IMG/VR virus record: IMGVR_UViG_3300010348_000185
DNA length: 30,633 nucleotides
Strand: one strand, 5' to 3'
From: a virus
Position 1 is the stretch's first letter. Each line of letters opens with the position of its first letter. Both the position numbers and the translations under genes were made by a program. The notes beneath the pieces were generated by a model that saw only the letters and a list, made by a program, of their open reading frames with translations, did no database searches and was not told the origin of the DNA. This document shows positions 1 to 30,633 of this stretch, piece by piece.

Positions 1-127
1 TTTAATTATATTTCCATATTTTGATGTTTTATATTGCATATCTTATATTTTAATTATTTGTCATTATATAACTTCCATACCAATCAAATCCTGTTGTTGC
101 ATTTGGACCTGTTGTATCTACAATGTA
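1..127. repeat. Terminal direct repeat, left copy, identical to 30507-30633. It indicates a closed circular assembly or terminal redundancy.
   Basis: Base-by-base comparison: 'tttaattatatttccatattttgatg...gtatctacaatgta' occurs at both ends of the window. It contains the first 13 codons of ORF 30123..30545 and the last 25 codons of ORF 50..1753. Confidence 0.95.
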
Positions 128-17821: not shown

Positions 17822-19035
17822 TTATCTAATTTTATATTTTTGTATTGCTGGTTTTTTCAACCTATGCATTATTAAATATCTTGCAGCATCAATTAGGTGG
17901 TTATACATATCAACAGGTTTCTCACCTCTTTCAGCCCATATATAATTATTTAACTCTTTAATTAGATTTTTACTTAGAGGATCTATAATAAGTTTATAAT
18001 CTTGCATTAAAAGTAACCCTTCTTTAACTGAACCAGCACCTTTAACACAAGGTTTTATATTAACACCAGTTCTTTTTATTTCTTCGATAAGTCTTCCTTC
18101 TGCTGAATCAGCAATGATTAGTTTATTACCAGCAACAATTCTAAATATATAAGATAACTCAGATGTGGTCTTACCAATTTCATACAATTCTTCTTTTAAC
18201 CAAATAATCTTTCTTTTATTATCTATACTTACTTTAACTAAGGTAGATGGGTCTTCTGACCAACCAAAGTCAGCACCACATTCCCAATCACTATCCTCAT
18301 TAAAATCTCCAATTTCCCAGTTGTTAAATATAACTCCTTCTGATTTATCTAAGAAACCACCCAATATAATGTGTTTATACTTTTGAGGATTATCTAATTT
18401 CATTCTTTTTACTTGTTTTAAGAAACTTTCTGGTAGTTTATCTTCTATATCCTCATATGTAGTGTGAATGTATGTTATATCGTCTGTAATTAAGTTTGTT
18501 CCTTCTTTAATACCTCTACTCTCATAAAATCTTTGATATAACCAACTTGCTTTACTTGTTGGATTAAACATAAGAATAATTTTATTAAAGTGTCTATTAG
18601 AACGAACTGAAAGGTCTATCTTATCAAATGTTTCTTCATCAGGAATTTCTTCACTTTCGTCTATTACAAGTGTATCAATGTTAGCAATAGATTTAAGGTT
18701 TGCTGTTTGCTGACCAGAACCTGCTTTAATACCCTTAAAAATAATTTTAGAACCTGTCAATTTATTTATGATTTCTGATTTAGTAATCTCAAATAAGTCA
18801 TCAAGTTCTAATGTTTGTATTTTATCTATAAACTCAGGAAAGATAGATATAGCAACCGAGGTCATTGTATAACGAGCAAATAAAATAGTTCTACTATTCT
18901 CAAATGTTAAAAGTAAAAGATAGAGAGCAACAGAATAAGACTTTCCACTCCCTCGGGTCAGCGACCCCCACTTACACAATAATAACGAGTATTATTAGCA
19001 AATAGGGGTTTATACTTTTCATTAATTTTTATCAT
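17822..19035 (-). CDS. terL: Terminase large subunit with an interrupted reading frame inside the Walker A motif
   Basis: The main ORF has RGSGKSYSVALYLL (P-loop), 'LVIDESEE' (Walker B-like) and a C-terminal nuclease region. The true N-terminus MIKINEKYKPLFANNTRYYCVSGGR (19035..18961) lies in another frame and ends at a TGA (18960..18958). Together they reconstitute the canonical ...YxxVSGGRGSGKS motif. Confidence 0.8.
18953..18967 (-). other. Candidate recoding site in terL: CGC-UGA-CC-CGA within the hairpin GGGUC-GCU-GACCC, next to a G5 run
   Basis: Read directly from the sequence: 'agt ggg ggt CGC TGA cc CGA ggg agt gga aag'. Skipping 8 nt from CGC to CGA restores VSGGRGSGKS. Confidence 0.4.
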
Positions 19036-19115: not shown

Positions 19116-19409
19116 CTACTTATCACTACTTTCATCCTTACTCTCAAATGAAACTAATTTTGATATATCAACATCATTCACAGTTAATGTTGTTGTTTGA
19201 TTCACATTAGTTATAGGTTTCCCATAAATATATTGAAAGTATAATGTAATTGCTTTTGTATCACCTTGTTTAATCTTTTCTAATAATTTAGAAACAACTA
19301 AACCTCTGTCAATATATTCATCAAATAACTTAATGACATCTTGTTCTTCTGATCTTCTTGGACGACCAGCACCCGGCCTAGCACCACCCCAATTTTCTTT
19401 CTTTTCCAT
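19116..19409 (-). CDS. terS: Terminase small subunit candidate (97 aa)
   Basis: 'WGGARPGAGRPRR' is a basic N-terminal DNA-binding motif common in small terminases. The gene lies upstream of terL. Confidence 0.5.
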   Translation of the reverse strand: MEKKENWGGARPGAGRPRRSEEQDVIKLFDEYIDRGLVVSKLLEKIKQGDTKAITLYFQYIYGKPITNVNQTTTLTVNDVDISKLVSFESKDESSDK

Positions 19410-19885
19410 TATATTTTATGGTATATTTTTTTAGCATCTAAATATGCTTGTCTTGCTTCTTCTTCTGTTTTAAAGAAACCAAGGCTTATATTATTATTAT
19501 TATATCCTATCTGTGAATGAAACTTATTTCTATCCTTCCTATAACAATAACCTTTACTATTTTTTGTATTCCATTGATTTTGTTGGTTTGTAACCTTTCT
19601 TAAATTACATATTCTATTATCATCTTTAATACCATTTATATGGTCTATACAATCAACAATTTCTCCATATTTATAGTAGTAGGCAAATTGATGACCTAAT
19701 AAATTGATAATTTTACCTTTATTATATATATTAAGAAATATATAACCTTTTTTATGTCTTCTAGTAATTTCATTACCACTACTTCCGTATATCTTACCTG
19801 TTATACTATCATAAATATAACCTTTACTAATTGCTAATTTACATTTATCTTCTCTTGTCATCTTGAAACTATTTTGTTTATTCAA
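19409..19885 (-). CDS. HNH homing endonuclease with a C-terminal AP2-like DNA-binding domain (158 aa)
   Basis: 'HQFAYYY...DHINGIKDDNRICNLRKVTNQQNQWN' is an HNH_3-type motif. 'RKDRNKFHSQIGYNNNNISLGFFKTEEEARQAYLDAKKIY' is AP2-like. Confidence 0.85.
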   Translation of the reverse strand: MNKQNSFKMTREDKCKLAISKGYIYDSITGKIYGSSGNEITRRHKKGYIFLNIYNKGKIINLLGHQFAYYYKYGEIVDCIDHINGIKDDNRICNLRKVTNQQNQWNTKNSKGYCYRKDRNKFHSQIGYNNNNISLGFFKTEEEARQAYLDAKKIYHKI

Positions 19886-20267
19886 CTACTAAGACACCTA
19901 ATCTTTGTATCATTTTTGCTATTAAACCTGGACACGCACATCTACTTAGTTTAGAACTAAATATATCATTATACAATCTAAATAGGTTATTCACATCATC
20001 ATTGTTTAATGTATGTGTAGAAGTAATCTTTTTGATAAAATCGATCTCTTCCTCTGTAATATCTCTACTTGCTTTTAACCAAGGAAATGCTTTATTAAGT
20101 GCTTCTTTTCTTCTTTTACAAGGTTCGCATTCAGGAATACCAAGTGTTTGTGTTATTGAACTTACTAAATCTCCTAAACCTGAACTTTCTAATTTTTGTT
20201 CTGTTGTTTCCTCTGTTAAACCATCTAATATAATTTCAGGTTCTTCAGTTTTTCTTTTCTTTGCCAT
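19878..20267 (-). CDS. Hypothetical Cys-containing protein (129 aa)
   Basis: The ORF has CEPC...RCACPG cysteines. Function is unknown. Confidence 0.3.
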   Translation of the reverse strand: MAKKRKTEEPEIILDGLTEETTEQKLESSGLGDLVSSITQTLGIPECEPCKRRKEALNKAFPWLKASRDITEEEIDFIKKITSTHTLNNDDVNNLFRLYNDIFSSKLSRCACPGLIAKMIQRLGVLVVE

Positions 20268-22935: not shown

Positions 22936-22968
22936 ATTCGTCTTTTATTTTTTATGTCTTTTTATTTA

Positions 22969-23011
22969 CTTGGGAGACGAACCTGAGGGGATCAATCCTC
23001 AGGAACCCAAG
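22969..23011 (-). promoter_or_regulatory. GC-rich bipartite stem-loop in the 5' leader of the polymerase gene
   Basis: The outer stem is cttggg/cccaag, the inner stem cctgagg/cctcagg, and the loop ggatcaat. It lies 34-76 nt upstream of the ATG at 22935 and is a GC island in AT-rich DNA. Confidence 0.5.
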
Positions 23012-23129
23012 AAGAAGTTTAATAACTTACTTATAGTAGTGTTTATTTTAATAAACAACTCTTTAGTATATATTATATTTTCAAACTCCCTTTTGTTGTT
23101 TTTTTAATTTTTTTTAATTTTTTTTATAA

Positions 23130-23161
23130 AAAACCCTAACCAAATAATTGATTAGGGTTTT
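23130..23161 (-). terminator. Rho-independent terminator (potentially bidirectional)
   Basis: The stem is aaaaccctaa/ttagggtttt with a 12-nt loop. It has a U-run on the minus-strand transcript and T-rich flanks on both sides. Confidence 0.65.
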
Positions 23162-23182
23162 AAAAAATAAAGAAGAAAATTA

Positions 23183-23326
23183 TTATTGCTTAGATAAAAT
23201 CACATAAGTGATTAAACCTCCTATAATTGTAAGCCAAAAAAAGAATCTTACATTATTATTTATACTTCTTAAATACTGAGTTTGCTTCTCAAGCAATTGT
23301 CTGTCTGTTAATTTATTAAATTCCAT
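23183..23326 (-). CDS. Small C-terminally membrane-anchored protein (47 aa, MEFNKLTDRQLLEKQTQYLRSINNNVRFFFWLTIIGGLITYVILSKQ)
   Basis: Hand-translated ORF between 23361..23609 and the terminator. Confidence 0.35.
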   Translation of the reverse strand: MEFNKLTDRQLLEKQTQYLRSINNNVRFFFWLTIIGGLITYVILSKQ

Positions 23327-23360
23327 ATTGTATATATTAAAATGTTTGTTGTTCCTTTGT

Positions 23361-23609
23361 TTAATTTTTAATGTATAATTGTTTATTATATAAACCTAAT
23401 TTATTCTCATCAATTGCTTCTGTTAAAGTCAATTTTACCTGATTTGCTATCCAACTAAATGGTGAATTAATTATTTCATCTATAGTTAAATACCTAACCA
23501 CACCATCGGCAAATGTAAATCTATATTCTATAAGATTAGGATCTACCGAAGTTAATCTAGATATCCAAATGTTAATCTCTGGTTGCATAATCATAATTGT
23601 ATGTGCCAT
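23361..23609 (-). CDS. Hypothetical protein (82 aa)
   Basis: ORF with an ATG start, on the same strand as its neighbours. Confidence 0.3.
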   Translation of the reverse strand: MAHTIMIMQPEINIWISRLTSVDPNLIEYRFTFADGVVRYLTIDEIINSPFSWIANQVKLTLTEAIDENKLGLYNKQLYIKN

Positions 23610-23712
23610 ATTTTCTATTTTTTAATTATTACTCGATCATCGATAGTGCTTTCTAAACAAAGATAGTGTTTATATTTAATATAAACAACTTTTAGTACTA
23701 CTATTATTTCAA

Positions 23713-23937
23713 TTAATCTAATACTAACTCCAACTTTTTATTTCTAATATAAACAATATATAAAGCATACTCATATCTACTAACTTCATCATAACTAATT
23801 TTACCGTTACTATAATCTAACCACATAGCATTACAAGTAGTATCATTTTTACTATAAGTTAGAAAATCATTCCAATCATCATAACTTAACAGCTTTTGCC
23901 AATCATTTTTGTAACCTTTGACTTGCTCTATTTTCAT
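23713..23937 (-). CDS. Hypothetical protein (74 aa), first gene of the minus-strand arm
   Basis: The ORF lies 20 nt downstream of a Bacteroidota-type promoter. Confidence 0.35.
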   Translation of the reverse strand: MKIEQVKGYKNDWQKLLSYDDWNDFLTYSKNDTTCNAMWLDYSNGKISYDEVSRYEYALYIVYIRNKKLELVLD

Positions 23938-23956
23938 ATTTTTTAATTTAACTCTA

Positions 23957-23987
23957 CAAATTTACAATTATTTTATGATCTAGCAAA
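23957..23987 (-). promoter_or_regulatory. Bacteroidota sigma-A type promoter: -33 TTTG, 19-nt spacer, -7 TAAATTTG
   Basis: The minus strand reads TTTGctagatcataaaataattgTAAATTTG. This matches the TTTG-N19-21-TAnnTTTG consensus, and the ATG lies 20 nt downstream. Confidence 0.6.
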
Positions 23988-24090
23988 ATATTTGTAAAAA
24001 AATTAAAAAAAAATCAAAAAATAGCAAAAGGGACTGAACATATATTAATATATATAATATAATATATATAAAAAATAAGAAATAAAGAAT

Positions 24091-24240
24091 ATGACAACAA
24101 AAGAACAATTAAGAAAACTTCAAGATGAATGGGATAGATTATCACTTTATTCATCAAATCCAGAAAAGAAAATGGATAAAATAGAAAAGAAAATGGAAGT
24201 TTTAGAAAGACAATTAAAATTAGAGAGTTTAGGAATTTAA
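24091..24240 (+). CDS. Small hypothetical protein (49 aa, MTTKEQLRKLQDEWDRLSLYSSNPEKKMDKIEKKMEVLERQLKLESLGI), first gene of the plus-strand arm
   Basis: Hand-translated ORF. It is preceded by the leader 'ataaaaaataagaaataaagaatATG', which is shared with other plus-strand genes. Confidence 0.45.
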   Translation: MTTKEQLRKLQDEWDRLSLYSSNPEKKMDKIEKKMEVLERQLKLESLGI

Positions 24241-24251
24241 CCTAAACTCTC
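24223..24251 (+). promoter_or_regulatory. Perfect 11-bp stem-loop overlapping the stop codon of the first early ORF
   Basis: The stem is gagagtttagg/cctaaactctc with the 7-nt loop aatttaa. It is followed by an A-run, not a U-run, so it may be an attenuator or processing site rather than a classical terminator. Confidence 0.4.
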
Positions 24252-24270
24252 AAAAAAATAAATTATTAAT

Positions 24271-24423
24271 ATGAAAAACTCAAAATTAATAAACATTAGC
24301 ACAAAAACAATAGAAGAGTTAGATACTCTAAGAAATAAGTATAATTTATCATATGATAAAATTATCACATCTCTTATTATAGAATACTATAAAAACAAAA
24401 ATAATAATAACAAAGATGAATAA
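24271..24423 (+). CDS. Small ribbon-helix-helix-like DNA-binding protein candidate (50 aa)
   Basis: MKNSKLINISTKTIEELDTLRNKYNLSYDKIITSLIIEYYKNKNNNNKDE has a strand-helix-helix pattern like CopG/Arc family proteins. Confidence 0.35.
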   Translation: MKNSKLINISTKTIEELDTLRNKYNLSYDKIITSLIIEYYKNKNNNNKDE

Positions 24424-24574
24424 AGAAGTTTTAAGAGAGAAAATAATTGAAACCTCATATTACATTACACAAGCAGTAATGAAGTCTAATATAGAAGATA
24501 TAGAGCGTTTAAGAGCAGAGATGAATAACCTAATCGAGCTATATAAAAATGAACTAAACAATAATGGCTTGTAA
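24416..24574 (+). CDS. Small hypothetical protein (52 aa)
   Basis: Hand-translated: MNKEVLREKIIETSYYITQAVMKSNIEDIERLRAEMNNLIELYKNELNNNGL. It overlaps both neighbours in the usual coupled manner. Confidence 0.4.
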   Translation: MNKEVLREKIIETSYYITQAVMKSNIEDIERLRAEMNNLIELYKNELNNNGL

Positions 24575-24854
24575 CATATATAAATACTCTCAAAACGAGA
24601 GTGCCTCGCACTATACAGAATATGAAATGGAAAAATATAGCGAGTATATGACTTGGGTTGAGGATGAAGTAAATAAATCTGATCTACCAACTACTATTAA
24701 ACATAAAATGATGAGTAAAAGAAATCTTCATAAAAGAAAAAATGGTATGTGGTTTCTTGAAGAAGCCAGTTATGAATTTGAGTTTCTACCATTTAAGCAA
24801 TGGTTATTACAAACTGAAAGAGATGAAAAACTACAATCACTTTTAGGTGATTGA
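24564..24854 (+). CDS. Hypothetical early protein (96 aa) ending in ...RDEKLQSLLGD
   Basis: The last 12 codons lie inside the 95-bp perfect repeat. Confidence 0.4.
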   Translation: MACNIYKYSQNESASHYTEYEMEKYSEYMTWVEDEVNKSDLPTTIKHKMMSKRNLHKRKNGMWFLEEASYEFEFLPFKQWLLQTERDEKLQSLLGD

Positions 24855-24912
24855 TTTCTGTAAAACAGAATACTCGAAGAAGTTTCTTCGAGAGTTATAC
24901 TATCCCAATTGG
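24818..24912 (+). repeat. 95-bp perfect direct repeat, copy A (gene 3' end plus two hairpins)
   Basis: It is identical to 25312-25406. It contains 'RDEKLQSLLGD*', the hairpin ttctgt-aaa-acagaa, the hairpin ctcgaagaa-gt-ttcttcgag, and 'agttatactatcccaattgg'. Confidence 0.95.
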
Positions 24913-24963
24913 TACTACTCGATTAACGTGAGTGCGAAGCACTATAAAAAATAAATAAGAAAT

Positions 24964-25146
24964 ATGAAAAATAATATGAAAAAAATAATAGTAAATTTAA
25001 GATATGATATTAATTCAATAAATGAAAATGAAAAATTAGTAATTATTGAAGAATTAAAAAAAAACTTAAATAGTGATAATATAATGGTATTTTTTAACTC
25101 ATTAGAAAATAGAATATATACAATTGATATACCAAAATATGAATAA
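24964..25146 (+). CDS. Hypothetical early protein (60 aa)
   Basis: ORF with the conserved leader 'ctataaaaaataaataagaaatATG'. Confidence 0.35.
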   Translation: MKNNMKKIIVNLRYDINSINENEKLVIIEELKKNLNSDNIMVFFNSLENRIYTIDIPKYE

Positions 25147-25348
25147 ATTAAACCTATTTTATAATAATAATTTAATTGTAACTATTTATAGAAGTGATAT
25201 TCTTTGTAAAGGAAGCCTAATATCATTTGATGGTAATTTAGAATATATTGTAGTTAATGTAAATGAAAATGAAAATATATATGATGCTTTTTTAATGACT
25301 ATTCAAGAAGCAAGAGATGAAAAACTACAATCACTTTTAGGTGATTGA
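25139..25348 (+). CDS. Hypothetical early protein (69 aa from the ATG; the ORF track starts at a TTG at 25124) ending in ...RDEKLQSLLGD
   Basis: The ATG at 25139 overlaps the upstream stop (ATGAATAA). The last 12 codons lie inside the 95-bp repeat. Confidence 0.4.
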   Translation: MNKLNLFYNNNLIVTIYRSDILCKGSLISFDGNLEYIVVNVNENENIYDAFLMTIQEARDEKLQSLLGD

Positions 25349-25406
25349 TTTCTGTAAAACAGAATACTCGAAGAAGTTTCTTCGAGAGTTATACTATCCC
25401 AATTGG
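25312..25406 (+). repeat. 95-bp perfect direct repeat, copy B
   Basis: It is identical to 24818-24912. Confidence 0.95.
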
Positions 25407-25428
25407 GACTATAAAATAAAATAATAGA

Positions 25429-25671
25429 ATGAATATATTAACAAAAGAGTGTATTACACATTCAACTGATGTAAATGGAATAATTAAGATAGAAGGAATA
25501 ATTACAACACTTTTATTTAATTTCATAATTATAAAAAGAGAAAAGATTCGTTTAGACCTTTGTAAAAAAGACTTAGAGTTTATATGTTTTAGAGATGGTA
25601 TTTCTATAGAACAAGTAATTATAAATATGATAGAAGAACGTTTAGAAGGATTTAGATTTGTAGGTATGTAG
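25429..25671 (+). CDS. Hypothetical protein (80 aa) whose last residues run into a methyltransferase remnant
   Basis: The ORF ends ...EERLEGFRFVGM followed by TAG. Confidence 0.3.
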   Translation: MNILTKECITHSTDVNGIIKIEGIITTLLFNFIIIKREKIRLDLCKKDLEFICFRDGISIEQVIINMIEERLEGFRFVGM

Positions 25672-25752
25672 TTAGACGAAGATTACTTTAAAATTGCAGA
25701 AGCAAGAATAAACTCTTTTGAAGAGTATAGAAAATTACTTAAACAAAAATAA
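25648..25752 (+). pseudogene. C-terminal remnant of a DNA methyltransferase (GFRFVGM*LDEDYFKIAEARINSFEEYRKLLKQK)
   Basis: It matches the conserved methyltransferase ending 'GR.FIGIELD..Y...A..RI'; compare the intact neighbour's 'NRNFIGIELDQKFFNLAKERI'. The in-frame TAG sits where the conserved Glu (GAG) is expected. Confidence 0.6.
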
Positions 25753-25779
25753 ACAAACAGAAAAAGAAAAAGAAAAATA

Positions 25780-30122: not shown

Positions 30123-30545
30123 TTATATCATAATTTTATTAGCTTGTATAAAAATATCATTAACCTGTAAATCAGTCAATCCTAAAGATGATTGAATAAA
30201 AAGCACAGTCGGACTATTTCTATCTATCGCTGTTCCATATTCCCATATATACTTAGCAGCAGTTCTATTAGGCTCTTGTAATAATTCTAATGCATTTTCT
30301 ATAGCAGTTTCTAAATTCATTATTCTTAAAACAACTCTTAATCTCCATAATGGTATTTCAATAGGACAATTATGTCTTATTTCTTCTTCTTCAGTAAATA
30401 AATTACTTGGTTCTACAGTACCTCCAGCTGTTAAAAACTGAACATAGTCTTGATAAAGTGATGAGCCTTCGTCCATCGGAATTAAAGTGATAGTATCGTT
30501 ATCACATTTAATTATATTTCCATATTTTGATGTTTTATATTGCAT
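30123..30545 (-). CDS. Hypothetical protein (140 aa), possibly a fibre-associated accessory or chaperone by position
   Basis: It lies immediately downstream of the fibre gene on the circular map. Its first 13 codons are also present at 1-39 because of the terminal repeat. Confidence 0.25.
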   Translation of the reverse strand: MQYKTSKYGNIIKCDNDTITLIPMDEGSSLYQDYVQFLTAGGTVEPSNLFTEEEEIRHNCPIEIPLWRLRVVLRIMNLETAIENALELLQEPNRTAAKYIWEYGTAIDRNSPTVLFIQSSLGLTDLQVNDIFIQANKIMI

Positions 30546-30633
30546 ATCTTATATTTTAATTATTTGTCATTATATAACTTCCATACCAATCAAATCCTGT
30601 TGTTGCATTTGGACCTGTTGTATCTACAATGTA
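30507..30633. repeat. Terminal direct repeat, right copy, identical to 1-127.
   Basis: Same comparison as for 1-127. The length of 127 bp fits a k-mer overlap left by an assembler on a circular contig. Confidence 0.95.

Follow-up and report, generated by a model that had tools for sequence, protein, structure and literature searches.

A candidate stop-hop cassette at the Walker A motif of an interrupted phage large terminase gene

The viral record IMGVR_UViG_3300010348_000185 of IMG/VR, a stretch of 30,633 nucleotides (nt) that we refer to in its entirety as the window, raises the question of how a phage could make its large terminase subunit, TerL, when the terL gene is broken by a stop codon and a change of frame in the middle of its Walker A motif. 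The gene lies on the minus strand; from an ATG at 19035 it runs for 25 sense codons (MIKINEKYKPLFANNTRYYCVSGGR, 19035..18961) to a TGA at 18960..18958, and the rest of TerL is encoded by an open reading frame (ORF) of 385 codons in the -1/+2 frame (18979..17822, minus strand) that reads ...WGSLTRGSGKSYSVALY. At the break the mRNA reads GUA AGU GGG GGU CGC UGA CC CGA GGG AGU GGA AAG. These points (the coordinates, the 25 codons to the TGA, the change of frame and the reading of the mRNA) had been made in an earlier note on this DNA, and re-reading the sequence confirmed all of them. The note had also proposed a hop, in which translation leaves a CGC codon beside the UGA and resumes 8 nt further on, after CGA; following comparison with relatives this is the best-supported explanation, and we consider that interrupted terL genes are probably decoded by programmed short-range translational bypassing, or stop-hopping. 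In the terms of this reading the parts of the locus are as follows:

18961..19035, minus strand: terL segment 1, the start codon and 24 further codons, the last being CGC; it aligns with residues 22-46 of Sf6 gp2
18964..19009, minus strand: predicted 5' stem-loop of 46 nt in coding sequence (5' arm 19009-18990, loop CUCGU 18989-18985, 3' arm 18984-18964)
18964..18969, minus strand: GGGGGU (Gly-Gly codons GGG GGU), closing strand of the stem-loop, also resembling a Shine-Dalgarno (SD) sequence
18961..18963, minus strand: putative take-off codon CGC (Arg); CGY in every interrupted allele
18958..18960, minus strand: UGA stop, which would occupy the aminoacyl (A) site at take-off; UGA or UAA follows CGY in 21/21 loci
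18953..18960, minus strand: coding gap of 8 nt, TGACCCGA, untranslated in the hop reading; its removal restores GGRGSGKS
18955-18953, minus strand: putative landing codon CGA, the last three bases of the gap
17822..18952, minus strand: terL segment 2, from the resume codon GGG (18952-18950) to the stop, 376 codons that complete the ATPase domain and encode the RNaseH-like nuclease domain

What the hop would restore is a canonical terminase. Omission of TGACCCGA (18960..18953) gives the exact P-loop GGRGSGKS and a joined TerL of 401 amino acids (aa), and the identification of this P-loop as that of a PBSX-type terminase held up in two ways, a match to the Pfam family Terminase_3 and an ungapped alignment to Sf6 gp2. 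The predicted hop product matched Terminase_3 (PF04466) at 1.9e-40 (139.1-141.2 bits against a cut-off of 23.2) over residues 17-223, beginning at model position 3, and aligned with Sf6 gp2 (PDB 4IDH) without gaps from residue 2 on, with an identical GGRGSGKS. Its C-terminus matched the RNaseH-like nuclease domain Terminase_3C (PF17288; 4.4e-13, 50.3 bits against a cut-off of 26.7) as well as the SPP1-type nuclease domain 2WBN (E=2.9e-10). The product of a -1 frameshift scored 134.0 bits against Terminase_3 and was aligned only from position 10, as compared with 141.2 bits and position 3 for the hop product. The Walker A pattern GGR[GA]SGKS is not read in one frame in the window DNA, where TGACCCGA divides the motif after GGR; the hop reading predicts the junction peptide VSGGRGSGK (also given as CVSGGRGSGKSY), and the -1 reading predicts ...VSGGSLTRGSGK... 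(also given as CVSGGSLTRGSGKSY), i.e., GGSLTRGSGKS in the window. The composition of this cassette is highly atypical for the window genome, which has a GC content of 27.7%: CGC accounts for 1 of the 297 Arg codons outside the cassette, there are three G5/C5 runs in the whole 30.6 kilobases (kb), and GGGGGYCGY has a single occurrence in the window.

The interruption is shared with other phages. A protein search identified intact relatives of 401 aa at 96, 92, 90 and 88% identity, together with several truncated calls that share the break. From the DNA of truncated protein calls and from pattern-scan matches in IMG/VR and JGI metagenomes we collected 21 loci, including the window, that are broken at one identical codon and that stem from differing samples and assemblers; UAG was included as a stop only in the final viral pattern scan. 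These loci are the window (also represented by L374), L001, L004, L199, L002, L003, L167, L029, L130, L144, L012, L019, L179, L108, L110, L328, L120, L113, L196, L200 and L201, and their TerL proteins have diverged to as little as 31-36% aa identity. The downstream ORF was complete (374-395 codons) in all 15 of the interrupted alleles that are fully sequenced, and the ratio of non-synonymous to synonymous substitution (dN/dS) in this downstream part was 0.08-0.34 among interrupted alleles, with dS saturated. The first 25 codons were open in frame in all interrupted relatives, with synonymous changes per site far in excess of non-synonymous ones. Judged by these substitution patterns, both halves of terL are under purifying selection. 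The comparison of the insert among homologs, which had been suggested in the earlier note, thus gave a divided answer: the break is conserved at the same codon in 21 loci, but the gap itself varies from 5 to 8 nt. The idea that relatives with an uninterrupted GGRGSGKS would dispose of recoding proved too simple, in that close intact relatives do exist but conserved interrupted ones stand beside them.

Eight junction types with four gap lengths (5, 6, 7 and 8 nt) were found, and these vary even within the window clade (69-96% aa identity):

CGC UGA CC CGA: 8-nt gap; window clade
CGC UGA GU: 5-nt gap (TGAGT); L002, L003, L167 and the distant L019 and L179
CGC UAA CGA: 6-nt gap (TAACGA); L029, L130, L144
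CGC UGA CGA: 6-nt gap (TGACGA); L108, L110, L328, L120
CGC UGA C UGA: 7-nt gap (TGACTGA); L012
CGC UGA C CGU: 7-nt gap (TGACCGT); L113
CGC UGA C AGA: 7-nt gap (TGACAGA); L196
CGU UGA C CGA: 7-nt gap (TGACCGA); L200, L201

Gap length therefore changes by non-multiples of three without loss of the downstream frame, and exact skipping of the gap yields GGR[G/A/D]SGKS in every interrupted allele, which is the consensus of its own lineage; e.g., the skip product of L019, GGRDSGKS, carries the motif of its intact relatives at 95, 94, 85 and 68% identity. Conventional recoding would need shifts of -1 for the 5- and 8-nt gaps, 0 for the 6-nt gaps and +1 for the 7-nt gaps, so that no single frameshift fits a gap of 5, 6, 7 or 8 nt; a simple -1 slip in the G run, entertained in the earlier note, is disfavoured by this need for different shift directions. 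As the +1 frame of L012 meets a UGA inside the gap, only full skipping would work in that allele. On the nucleotide level, GGGGGY-CGY-stop was invariant in all 21 interrupted loci despite saturated synonymous divergence, and among 79 distinct intact contexts GGGGGYCGY occurred in one (1/79) and CGC at the take-off position in none (0/79). A stop directly after the take-off codon, one of the ingredients listed in the earlier note, accordingly holds throughout. Ahead of the resume codon every interrupted allele has an NG(A/U) triplet, namely CGA, CGU, AGA, UGA or AGU, with 0-2 spacer bases after the stop. Landing triplets cognate to the take-off tRNA (CGA or CGU) are found in the window, L199, L029, L108, L120, L113, L200 and L328; hence the claim that take-off and landing codons are matched stands for the window and the other CGA/CGU alleles and fails for the alleles with AGU, AGA or UGA.

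The interrupted alleles also have in common an RNA structure that the earlier note had overlooked. Folding of a wider sequence window predicted a hairpin of 46-47 nt within codons 9-24, whose 3' end is the GGGGGY. In the window its 5' arm is ACCCCUAUUUGCUAAUAAUA, its loop CUCGU and its 3' arm UAUUAUUGUGUAAGUGGGGGU, with a minimum free energy (MFE) of -21.8 kcal/mol (z -5.1), and no nucleotide separates its GC-rich base, ACCCCU/GGGGGU, from the take-off codon. The stem-loop was present in 14/14 interrupted alleles tested, with a mean MFE of -22.9 kcal/mol, a mean z of -5.6 and the last 6 nt paired, as against a mean MFE of -8.9 and a mean z of -0.4 in 63 distinct intact alleles, of which one had the stem-loop (Mann-Whitney p=8e-9). 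The contrast was replicated in the lineages of L019 (-19.6 versus -5.7 to -11.3 in intact relatives) and L108 (-22.9 versus -7 to -13). Covariation supports the pairing: 84% of cells were paired, compared with 42-54% in slid controls, both sides had changed in 8 of 20 pairs, and the score was reached by none of 500 shuffles; the RNAalifold consensus consists of the outer 12 base pairs (bp). The arms vary between lineages but stay paired, being made of the coding sequence of each lineage with no transferred block. The window and its close intact relative L197 (96% aa identity) differ by nine changes, mostly synonymous, that are concentrated in the hairpin region, and the next ~200 nt are 95-100% identical. 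L198 (63-173, Logan SRR32367546) is the one intact terL that has the full stem-loop and GGGGGT, with AGA GGG TCA in place of the gap; upstream it is nucleotide-identical to the window, and from AGA GGG TCA onward it is L197-like, such that it appears, from this arrangement, to be a recombinant caught just after loss of the gap.

A different and smaller hairpin had been proposed in the earlier note as an ingredient of the hop, GGGUC-GCU-GACCC, corresponding to the inverted repeat GGGTC-GCT-GACCC at 18967..18955 that overlaps the G5 run at 18969..18965. This proposal had to be given up, the small hairpin being absent from the 5-nt and UAA classes and unremarkable in the comparison with shuffled sequences (z about -0.65); it also includes the codon in the peptidyl (P) site and competes with the 46-nt stem-loop for the G run. 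No consistent or conserved structure was found 3' of the take-off codon (mean z -0.9 versus 0.0, driven by two alleles), and Rfam gave no match. L200 and L201 alone have a very strong hairpin 3' of the landing codon (L200 ~2160-2210; GCAAGUGGUAAGAGUUACACUGUAGCUCUUUACUUGC; -22.8 kcal/mol, z -5.8), which recalls the 3' barrier of T4 gene 60 and was not seen in other lineages.

Several explanations other than bypassing have to be set against these observations. From the window by itself one could not tell the insert from an error of sequencing or assembly, or from a mutation that has inactivated terL and made it a pseudogene of a defective phage, and all of the sequences are metagenomic assemblies; however, the window allele is present on three contigs, of which the one read (ENA MEGAHIT contig L374) has an identical 25-nt junction, 20 other loci have their break at this codon, with gaps that differ, both halves are, at saturated dS, under purifying selection and free of secondary stops, and a covarying RNA structure is specific to the interrupted alleles. 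Furthermore, positions 1..127 and 30507..30633 of the window are identical (a 127-nt overlap typical of assemblers); the window is therefore a circularly closed, complete genome of ~30.5 kb, and it carries tail and protease genes. An error or a dead gene, both raised in the earlier note, is accordingly disfavoured and in our estimation extremely unlikely. A correction on the level of nucleic acid could consist in slippage of RNA polymerase on the G run, in RNA editing or in the removal of a mini-intron. Some genes of bacteria and viruses do have their frame restored by transcriptional realignment, and a role of the hairpin as a signal for RNA processing is conceivable in principle. We nevertheless judge such a correction very unlikely, given that G5 is short for slippage, that the 6-nt class would keep its in-frame stop, and L012 its second UGA, whatever Gs were gained or lost, that Rfam has no matches, that a conserved stop right after an Arg codon is a translational signal and not a splicing one, and that we know of no bacterial system for the precise excision of 5-8 nt. 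Termination at the UGA followed by reinitiation, or a split protein made of the 25-mer and a truncated TerL from TTG 18979 or a downstream ATG, would agree with the 385-aa protein that gene callers predict from the TTG, and 70S scanning and reinitiation do occur in bacteria. Such an outcome would, however, put beta-strand 1 and Gly-Gly-Arg on a separate 25-mer, the break being within the P-loop; the 6- and 7-nt classes have no start codon near the stop, where callers resort to a Met 54 codons downstream; and selection on the first 25 codons would be left unexplained, as would a hairpin that abuts the stop. We hold it to be highly improbable.

Separate conventional events would account for the junctions class by class, with a -1 shift at the 8- and 5-nt gaps, readthrough at the 6-nt gaps and a +1 shift at CGY-U in the 7-nt gaps, leaving 1-3 extra residues in the P-loop. 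Taken singly, such events are all known, no stop closes the -1 frame at the window junction, a P-site codon followed by UGA resembles the prfB shift site, and the -1 product loses only 7 bits on Terminase_3. Against this, a single conserved cassette would have to drive shifts in opposite directions, although -1 shifts are attenuated by hairpins that refold upstream (PMC6321510); an X XXY YYZ heptamer is lacking, U GGG GGU being not tandem-slippery, and so is a consistent 3' stimulator; the +1 frame of L012 has its UGA; TGAGT stays unchanged between lineages whose dS is saturated, even at bases that in the -1 frame would be third positions open to synonymous change; and the products would break the G-x4-GKS spacing, which is contiguous in 79/79 distinct intact contexts and in Sf6 gp2. 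Re-pairing at +1 in the manner of prfB likewise does not describe the family, as the window needs +2/-1, the 6-nt class is in frame, and +1 in L012 leads to UGA. We therefore find a patchwork of conventional events unlikely. A last proposal deals with where the insert came from and does not conflict with bypassing as the mechanism: the insert could be a selfish or protective element that disrupts a homing-endonuclease site in Walker-A DNA, with bypassing making it tolerable. The gap of T4 gene 60, which protects against the MobA endonuclease, sets a precedent (bioRxiv 2022.08.31.505936); the window has an HNH_3+AP2 gene at 19409..19885 (minus strand), 374 nt upstream of the terL start, and L200 and L201 have an HNH_3 gene, unrelated to that of the window, directly upstream of the interrupted terL. 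Yet no homolog of either HNH gene lies near the other interrupted loci, no Pfam family match, and so no HNH, is on record for the genes upstream of terL in L002-L004, and the hairpin is built from the coding sequence of each lineage, so we regard this origin as distinctly improbable. A variant genetic code or suppressor tRNA was also considered and rejected: the window has no tRNAs, TGA, TAA and TAG all end normal genes in it, and the frame would remain unrepaired.

The stop-hop that we favour can be pictured as follows. After translating the 25 codons a ribosome would pause, its P site occupied by CGC with peptidyl-tRNA-Arg and its A site by UGA. At this pause the mRNA exit channel would contain the 3' side of the stem's lower ~12 bp (-12..-1), with the upper stem and the loop, which is at -26..-22 from take-off, already outside. 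The lower stem could then re-zip behind the ribosome and draw the mRNA forward; the anticodon would leave CGC, the mRNA would slide by 8 nt (5-8 nt in the relatives), the tRNA would re-pair with CGA, and decoding would resume at GGG, giving a normal TerL with an intact GGRGSGKS P-loop. Because 5-8 nt lie between the base of the hairpin and the P-site codon after landing, the geometry of the hairpin may set the length of the hop. Experiments have demonstrated refolding behind the ribosome for upstream hairpins and for the 5' stem-loop of gene 60. Pairing of exiting mRNA has been proposed as the forward driver in gene 60, where the loop of the 5' stem-loop is likewise 26 nt 5' of take-off (bioRxiv 2024.12.09.627546), and an upstream refolding hairpin that mimics an SD duplex raised forward shifts and attenuated -1 shifts at CUU-UGA on 70S ribosomes (PMC6321510).

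The G run might instead be thought to act as an internal SD sequence, and its predicted GGGGGU duplex with an assumed anti-SD tail (-9.6 kcal/mol) is close to that of the E. coli prfB site (-10.3). An SD-like core was found upstream of the ORF start in 0/29 genes of the window, however, and the 20-nt leaders are 66% A; on these leader sequences the initiation signature of the window is Bacteroidia-type, and the closest cultured phages infect Flavobacteriales (Nonlabens and Riemerella phages). Ribosomes of Bacteroidia are SD-blind, and prfB frameshifting there proceeds without pairing between SD and anti-SD (PMC10798248), so that stimulation by the hairpin is more plausible than by the SD-like G run. 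We thus downgraded the G run as main stimulator, given the lack of SDs in the window, the SD-blind ribosomes and the fact that the run is explained as the closing strand of the stem.

Some observations weigh against bypassing or against parts of this picture. The support for it is entirely computational. The landing triplet is non-cognate in a number of alleles, being AGU in L002, L003, L167, L019 and L179, AGA in L196 and UGA in L012; with the tRNA-Arg anticodon, which we take to be ICG, these near-cognate triplets would pair at positions 2-3 only. The one allele by which a +1 shift is formally excluded, L012, is represented by a single contig, and its TGA could have arisen from CGA by a recent mutation. 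The ribosomal footprint suggests that a slide of 5-8 nt frees only part of the lower stem, and the energetics of the zipper are qualitative. The correlation of the hairpin with the interruption could reflect another role, e.g., in pausing or mRNA stability. Lastly, the cassette was not found in the genome of a cultured phage or isolate, the scan of genome contigs being uninformative on account of too loose a pattern: among the matches listed were chance ones in GC-rich genomes, and none was at a terminase junction.

To our knowledge natural bypassing is established only for T4 gene 60 with its homologs and for the byps of yeast mitochondria, the terminase of the Streptomyces phage Hau3 being a candidate. 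The likeness to gene 60 is considerable: in both cases out-of-frame parts of an ORF in an essential phage gene are joined over a non-coding gap, with a peptidyl-tRNA that is, or would be, kept and re-paired at a landing codon, and the terL cassette has a 5' stem-loop of the gene 60 type, whose refolding is predicted from sequence. The gap of gene 60 is 50 nt, as opposed to 5-8 nt; its 5' stem-loop lies 9 nt upstream of take-off, whereas that of terL abuts it (0 nt) and is much longer and stronger; its take-off codon is Gly GGA instead of Arg CGY, and the landing codons of terL are not always matched. Gene 60 is a topoisomerase gene with a link to MobA, whereas the cassette resides in terL, in phages of another host phylum, with no sequence homology and no consistent endonuclease link. 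Nor does the cassette have the stem-loop that gene 60 forms at the A site and take-off codon, there being no conserved structure 3' of take-off. As regards a nascent-peptide signal in the exit tunnel, the peptide at take-off is 25 residues long and is the normal N-terminus of TerL; the intact alleles share it, so that comparing the two kinds of allele says nothing on this point.

The Hau3 terminase is said to have been named as a candidate for bypassing by Smith in 2013. As in terL, short inserts there disrupt the frame of a phage large terminase gene at highly conserved junctions whose flanks are contiguous in relatives, a 5' stem-loop, internal SD and landing codon have been proposed, and extra residues would be placed at an invariant site by a shift of +/-1. 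A bypass of two 10-nt gaps, each initiated by UUA, was proposed for Hau3, with 3 of 100 Streptomyces ter genes concerned and with support from mass spectrometry in E. coli (PMC10732093; Antonov et al. 2023). Hau3 is triggered by UUA, a sense codon that is rare and leaves the A site hungry, and its 10-nt gaps are at two other positions in a different terminase family and host phylum; in terL the trigger is a stop, the gaps are of 5-8 nt at Walker A, and conservation and covariation of the cassette extend to lineages of only about 31-36% identity, so that the cassette is not a case of the 10-nt UUA gap of Streptomyces phage ter genes. The terL cassette thus works like gene 60 and like Hau3 but belongs with neither.

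A further parallel is given by the synthetic stop-hops of E. coli, for which Weiss et al. in 1987 and O'Connor et al. in 1989 reportedly obtained +5 and +6 hops at low efficiency and with no stimulators. The 6-nt class (CGC UAA CGA and CGC UGA CGA) has the same layout of matched codons flanking a stop, 9 nt being read as one amino acid; the terL configuration differs in that it is natural, conserved and equipped with a dedicated stem-loop. A review of 2016 stated that no natural in-frame stop hopping was known (PMC5009743). With prfB the cassette has in common a P-site codon followed by UGA (UGA C in the window), GGGGG just 5' and competition with release factor 2 (RF2), a design that could be autoregulatory or sensor-like; it differs in a displacement of +5 to +8, non-overlapping landing, and a G run that is 1 nt from the shift codon and within a hairpin. 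Upstream refolding hairpins are reported to have been used by Cho in 2013 to modulate frameshifting, and we know of no natural gene of a bacterium or phage in which one drives a hop of several nucleotides. They share with the cassette a hairpin at the E/P site that refolds behind the ribosome and biases it forward, but are engineered or viral attenuators that affect +/-1 shifts (Huang, Cho and Chang 2018, PMC6321510). The byps of Magnusiomyces capitatus are of 27-55 nt, mobile and mitochondrial, usually followed by an unassigned or hungry codon, and unrelated in sequence and context. Our literature search found no paper describing a terL stop-hop cassette; a Polaribacter phage paper with the word 'frameshift' was set aside, as it refers only to a RAST setting.

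Among the public protein calls, P0002, P0006, P0008, P0011, P0043, P0075, P0083 and P0104 are truncated (347-385 aa), with a spurious TTG or GTG start or an internal Met. Gene callers thus systematically mis-annotate TerL database entries of this clade as N-terminally truncated. Taking all 347-aa calls that start MTSVAISIF as interrupted was an error, L202/P0046 being an intact gene with a mis-called start; the 15-mer AGTGGGGGTCGCTGA was discarded as a search probe on its own, its matches being mostly due to chance. P0009, P0013, P0043, P0049 and P0083 are mosaic, with an ATPase domain nearly identical to the window type and a nuclease domain from another lineage (...DFTNELDYGFGMDFGFSTDP...). 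Such mosaic TerLs point to frequent recombination within terL, by which the cassette could move between related phages. In the window itself, the homing-endonuclease-like HNH_3+AP2 gene sits between an ORF at 19878..20267 and a small terS-like ORF at 19116..19409. Further along, a strand switch at 22936..25779 separates leftward structural and packaging genes from rightward genes; its sole ORF of at least 90 aa is 24564..24854, and it may hold regulatory elements or an origin.

As to what a hop in terL would be for, its most likely role is to limit or time the synthesis of TerL through competition with RF2 and through ribosome traffic; it may also serve dosage, act as a sensor of RF2 or of traffic, or be a tolerated selfish insert. 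More tentatively, and with rather less confidence than we place in bypassing itself, the interrupted terL genes could be the first natural stop-hop family to be kept in evolution, an ancient cassette in the terminase genes of Bacteroidia phages. In it a hairpin would serve as the motor, in place of an SD duplex that SD-blind ribosomes could not use, and as a ruler that fixes the landing at 5-8 nt even for near-cognate triplets; the cassette would be kept for tuning or timing TerL synthesis against the activity of RF2 or the traffic of ribosomes, and the intact alleles would have arisen by repeated loss, with L198 as an intermediate. Programmed bypassing is among the rarest of decoding events, and the cassette would add to it a system that is compact (about 60 nt), widespread and naturally varied. 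With eight junctions, four gaps, cognate and near-cognate landings, dozens of covarying hairpin variants and close intact alleles as controls, it makes testable the source of unidirectional forward movement, the pairing of exiting mRNA as a motor and the strictness with which landing codons must be matched. It also bears on translation in the Bacteroidia, whose ribosomes ignore the SD.

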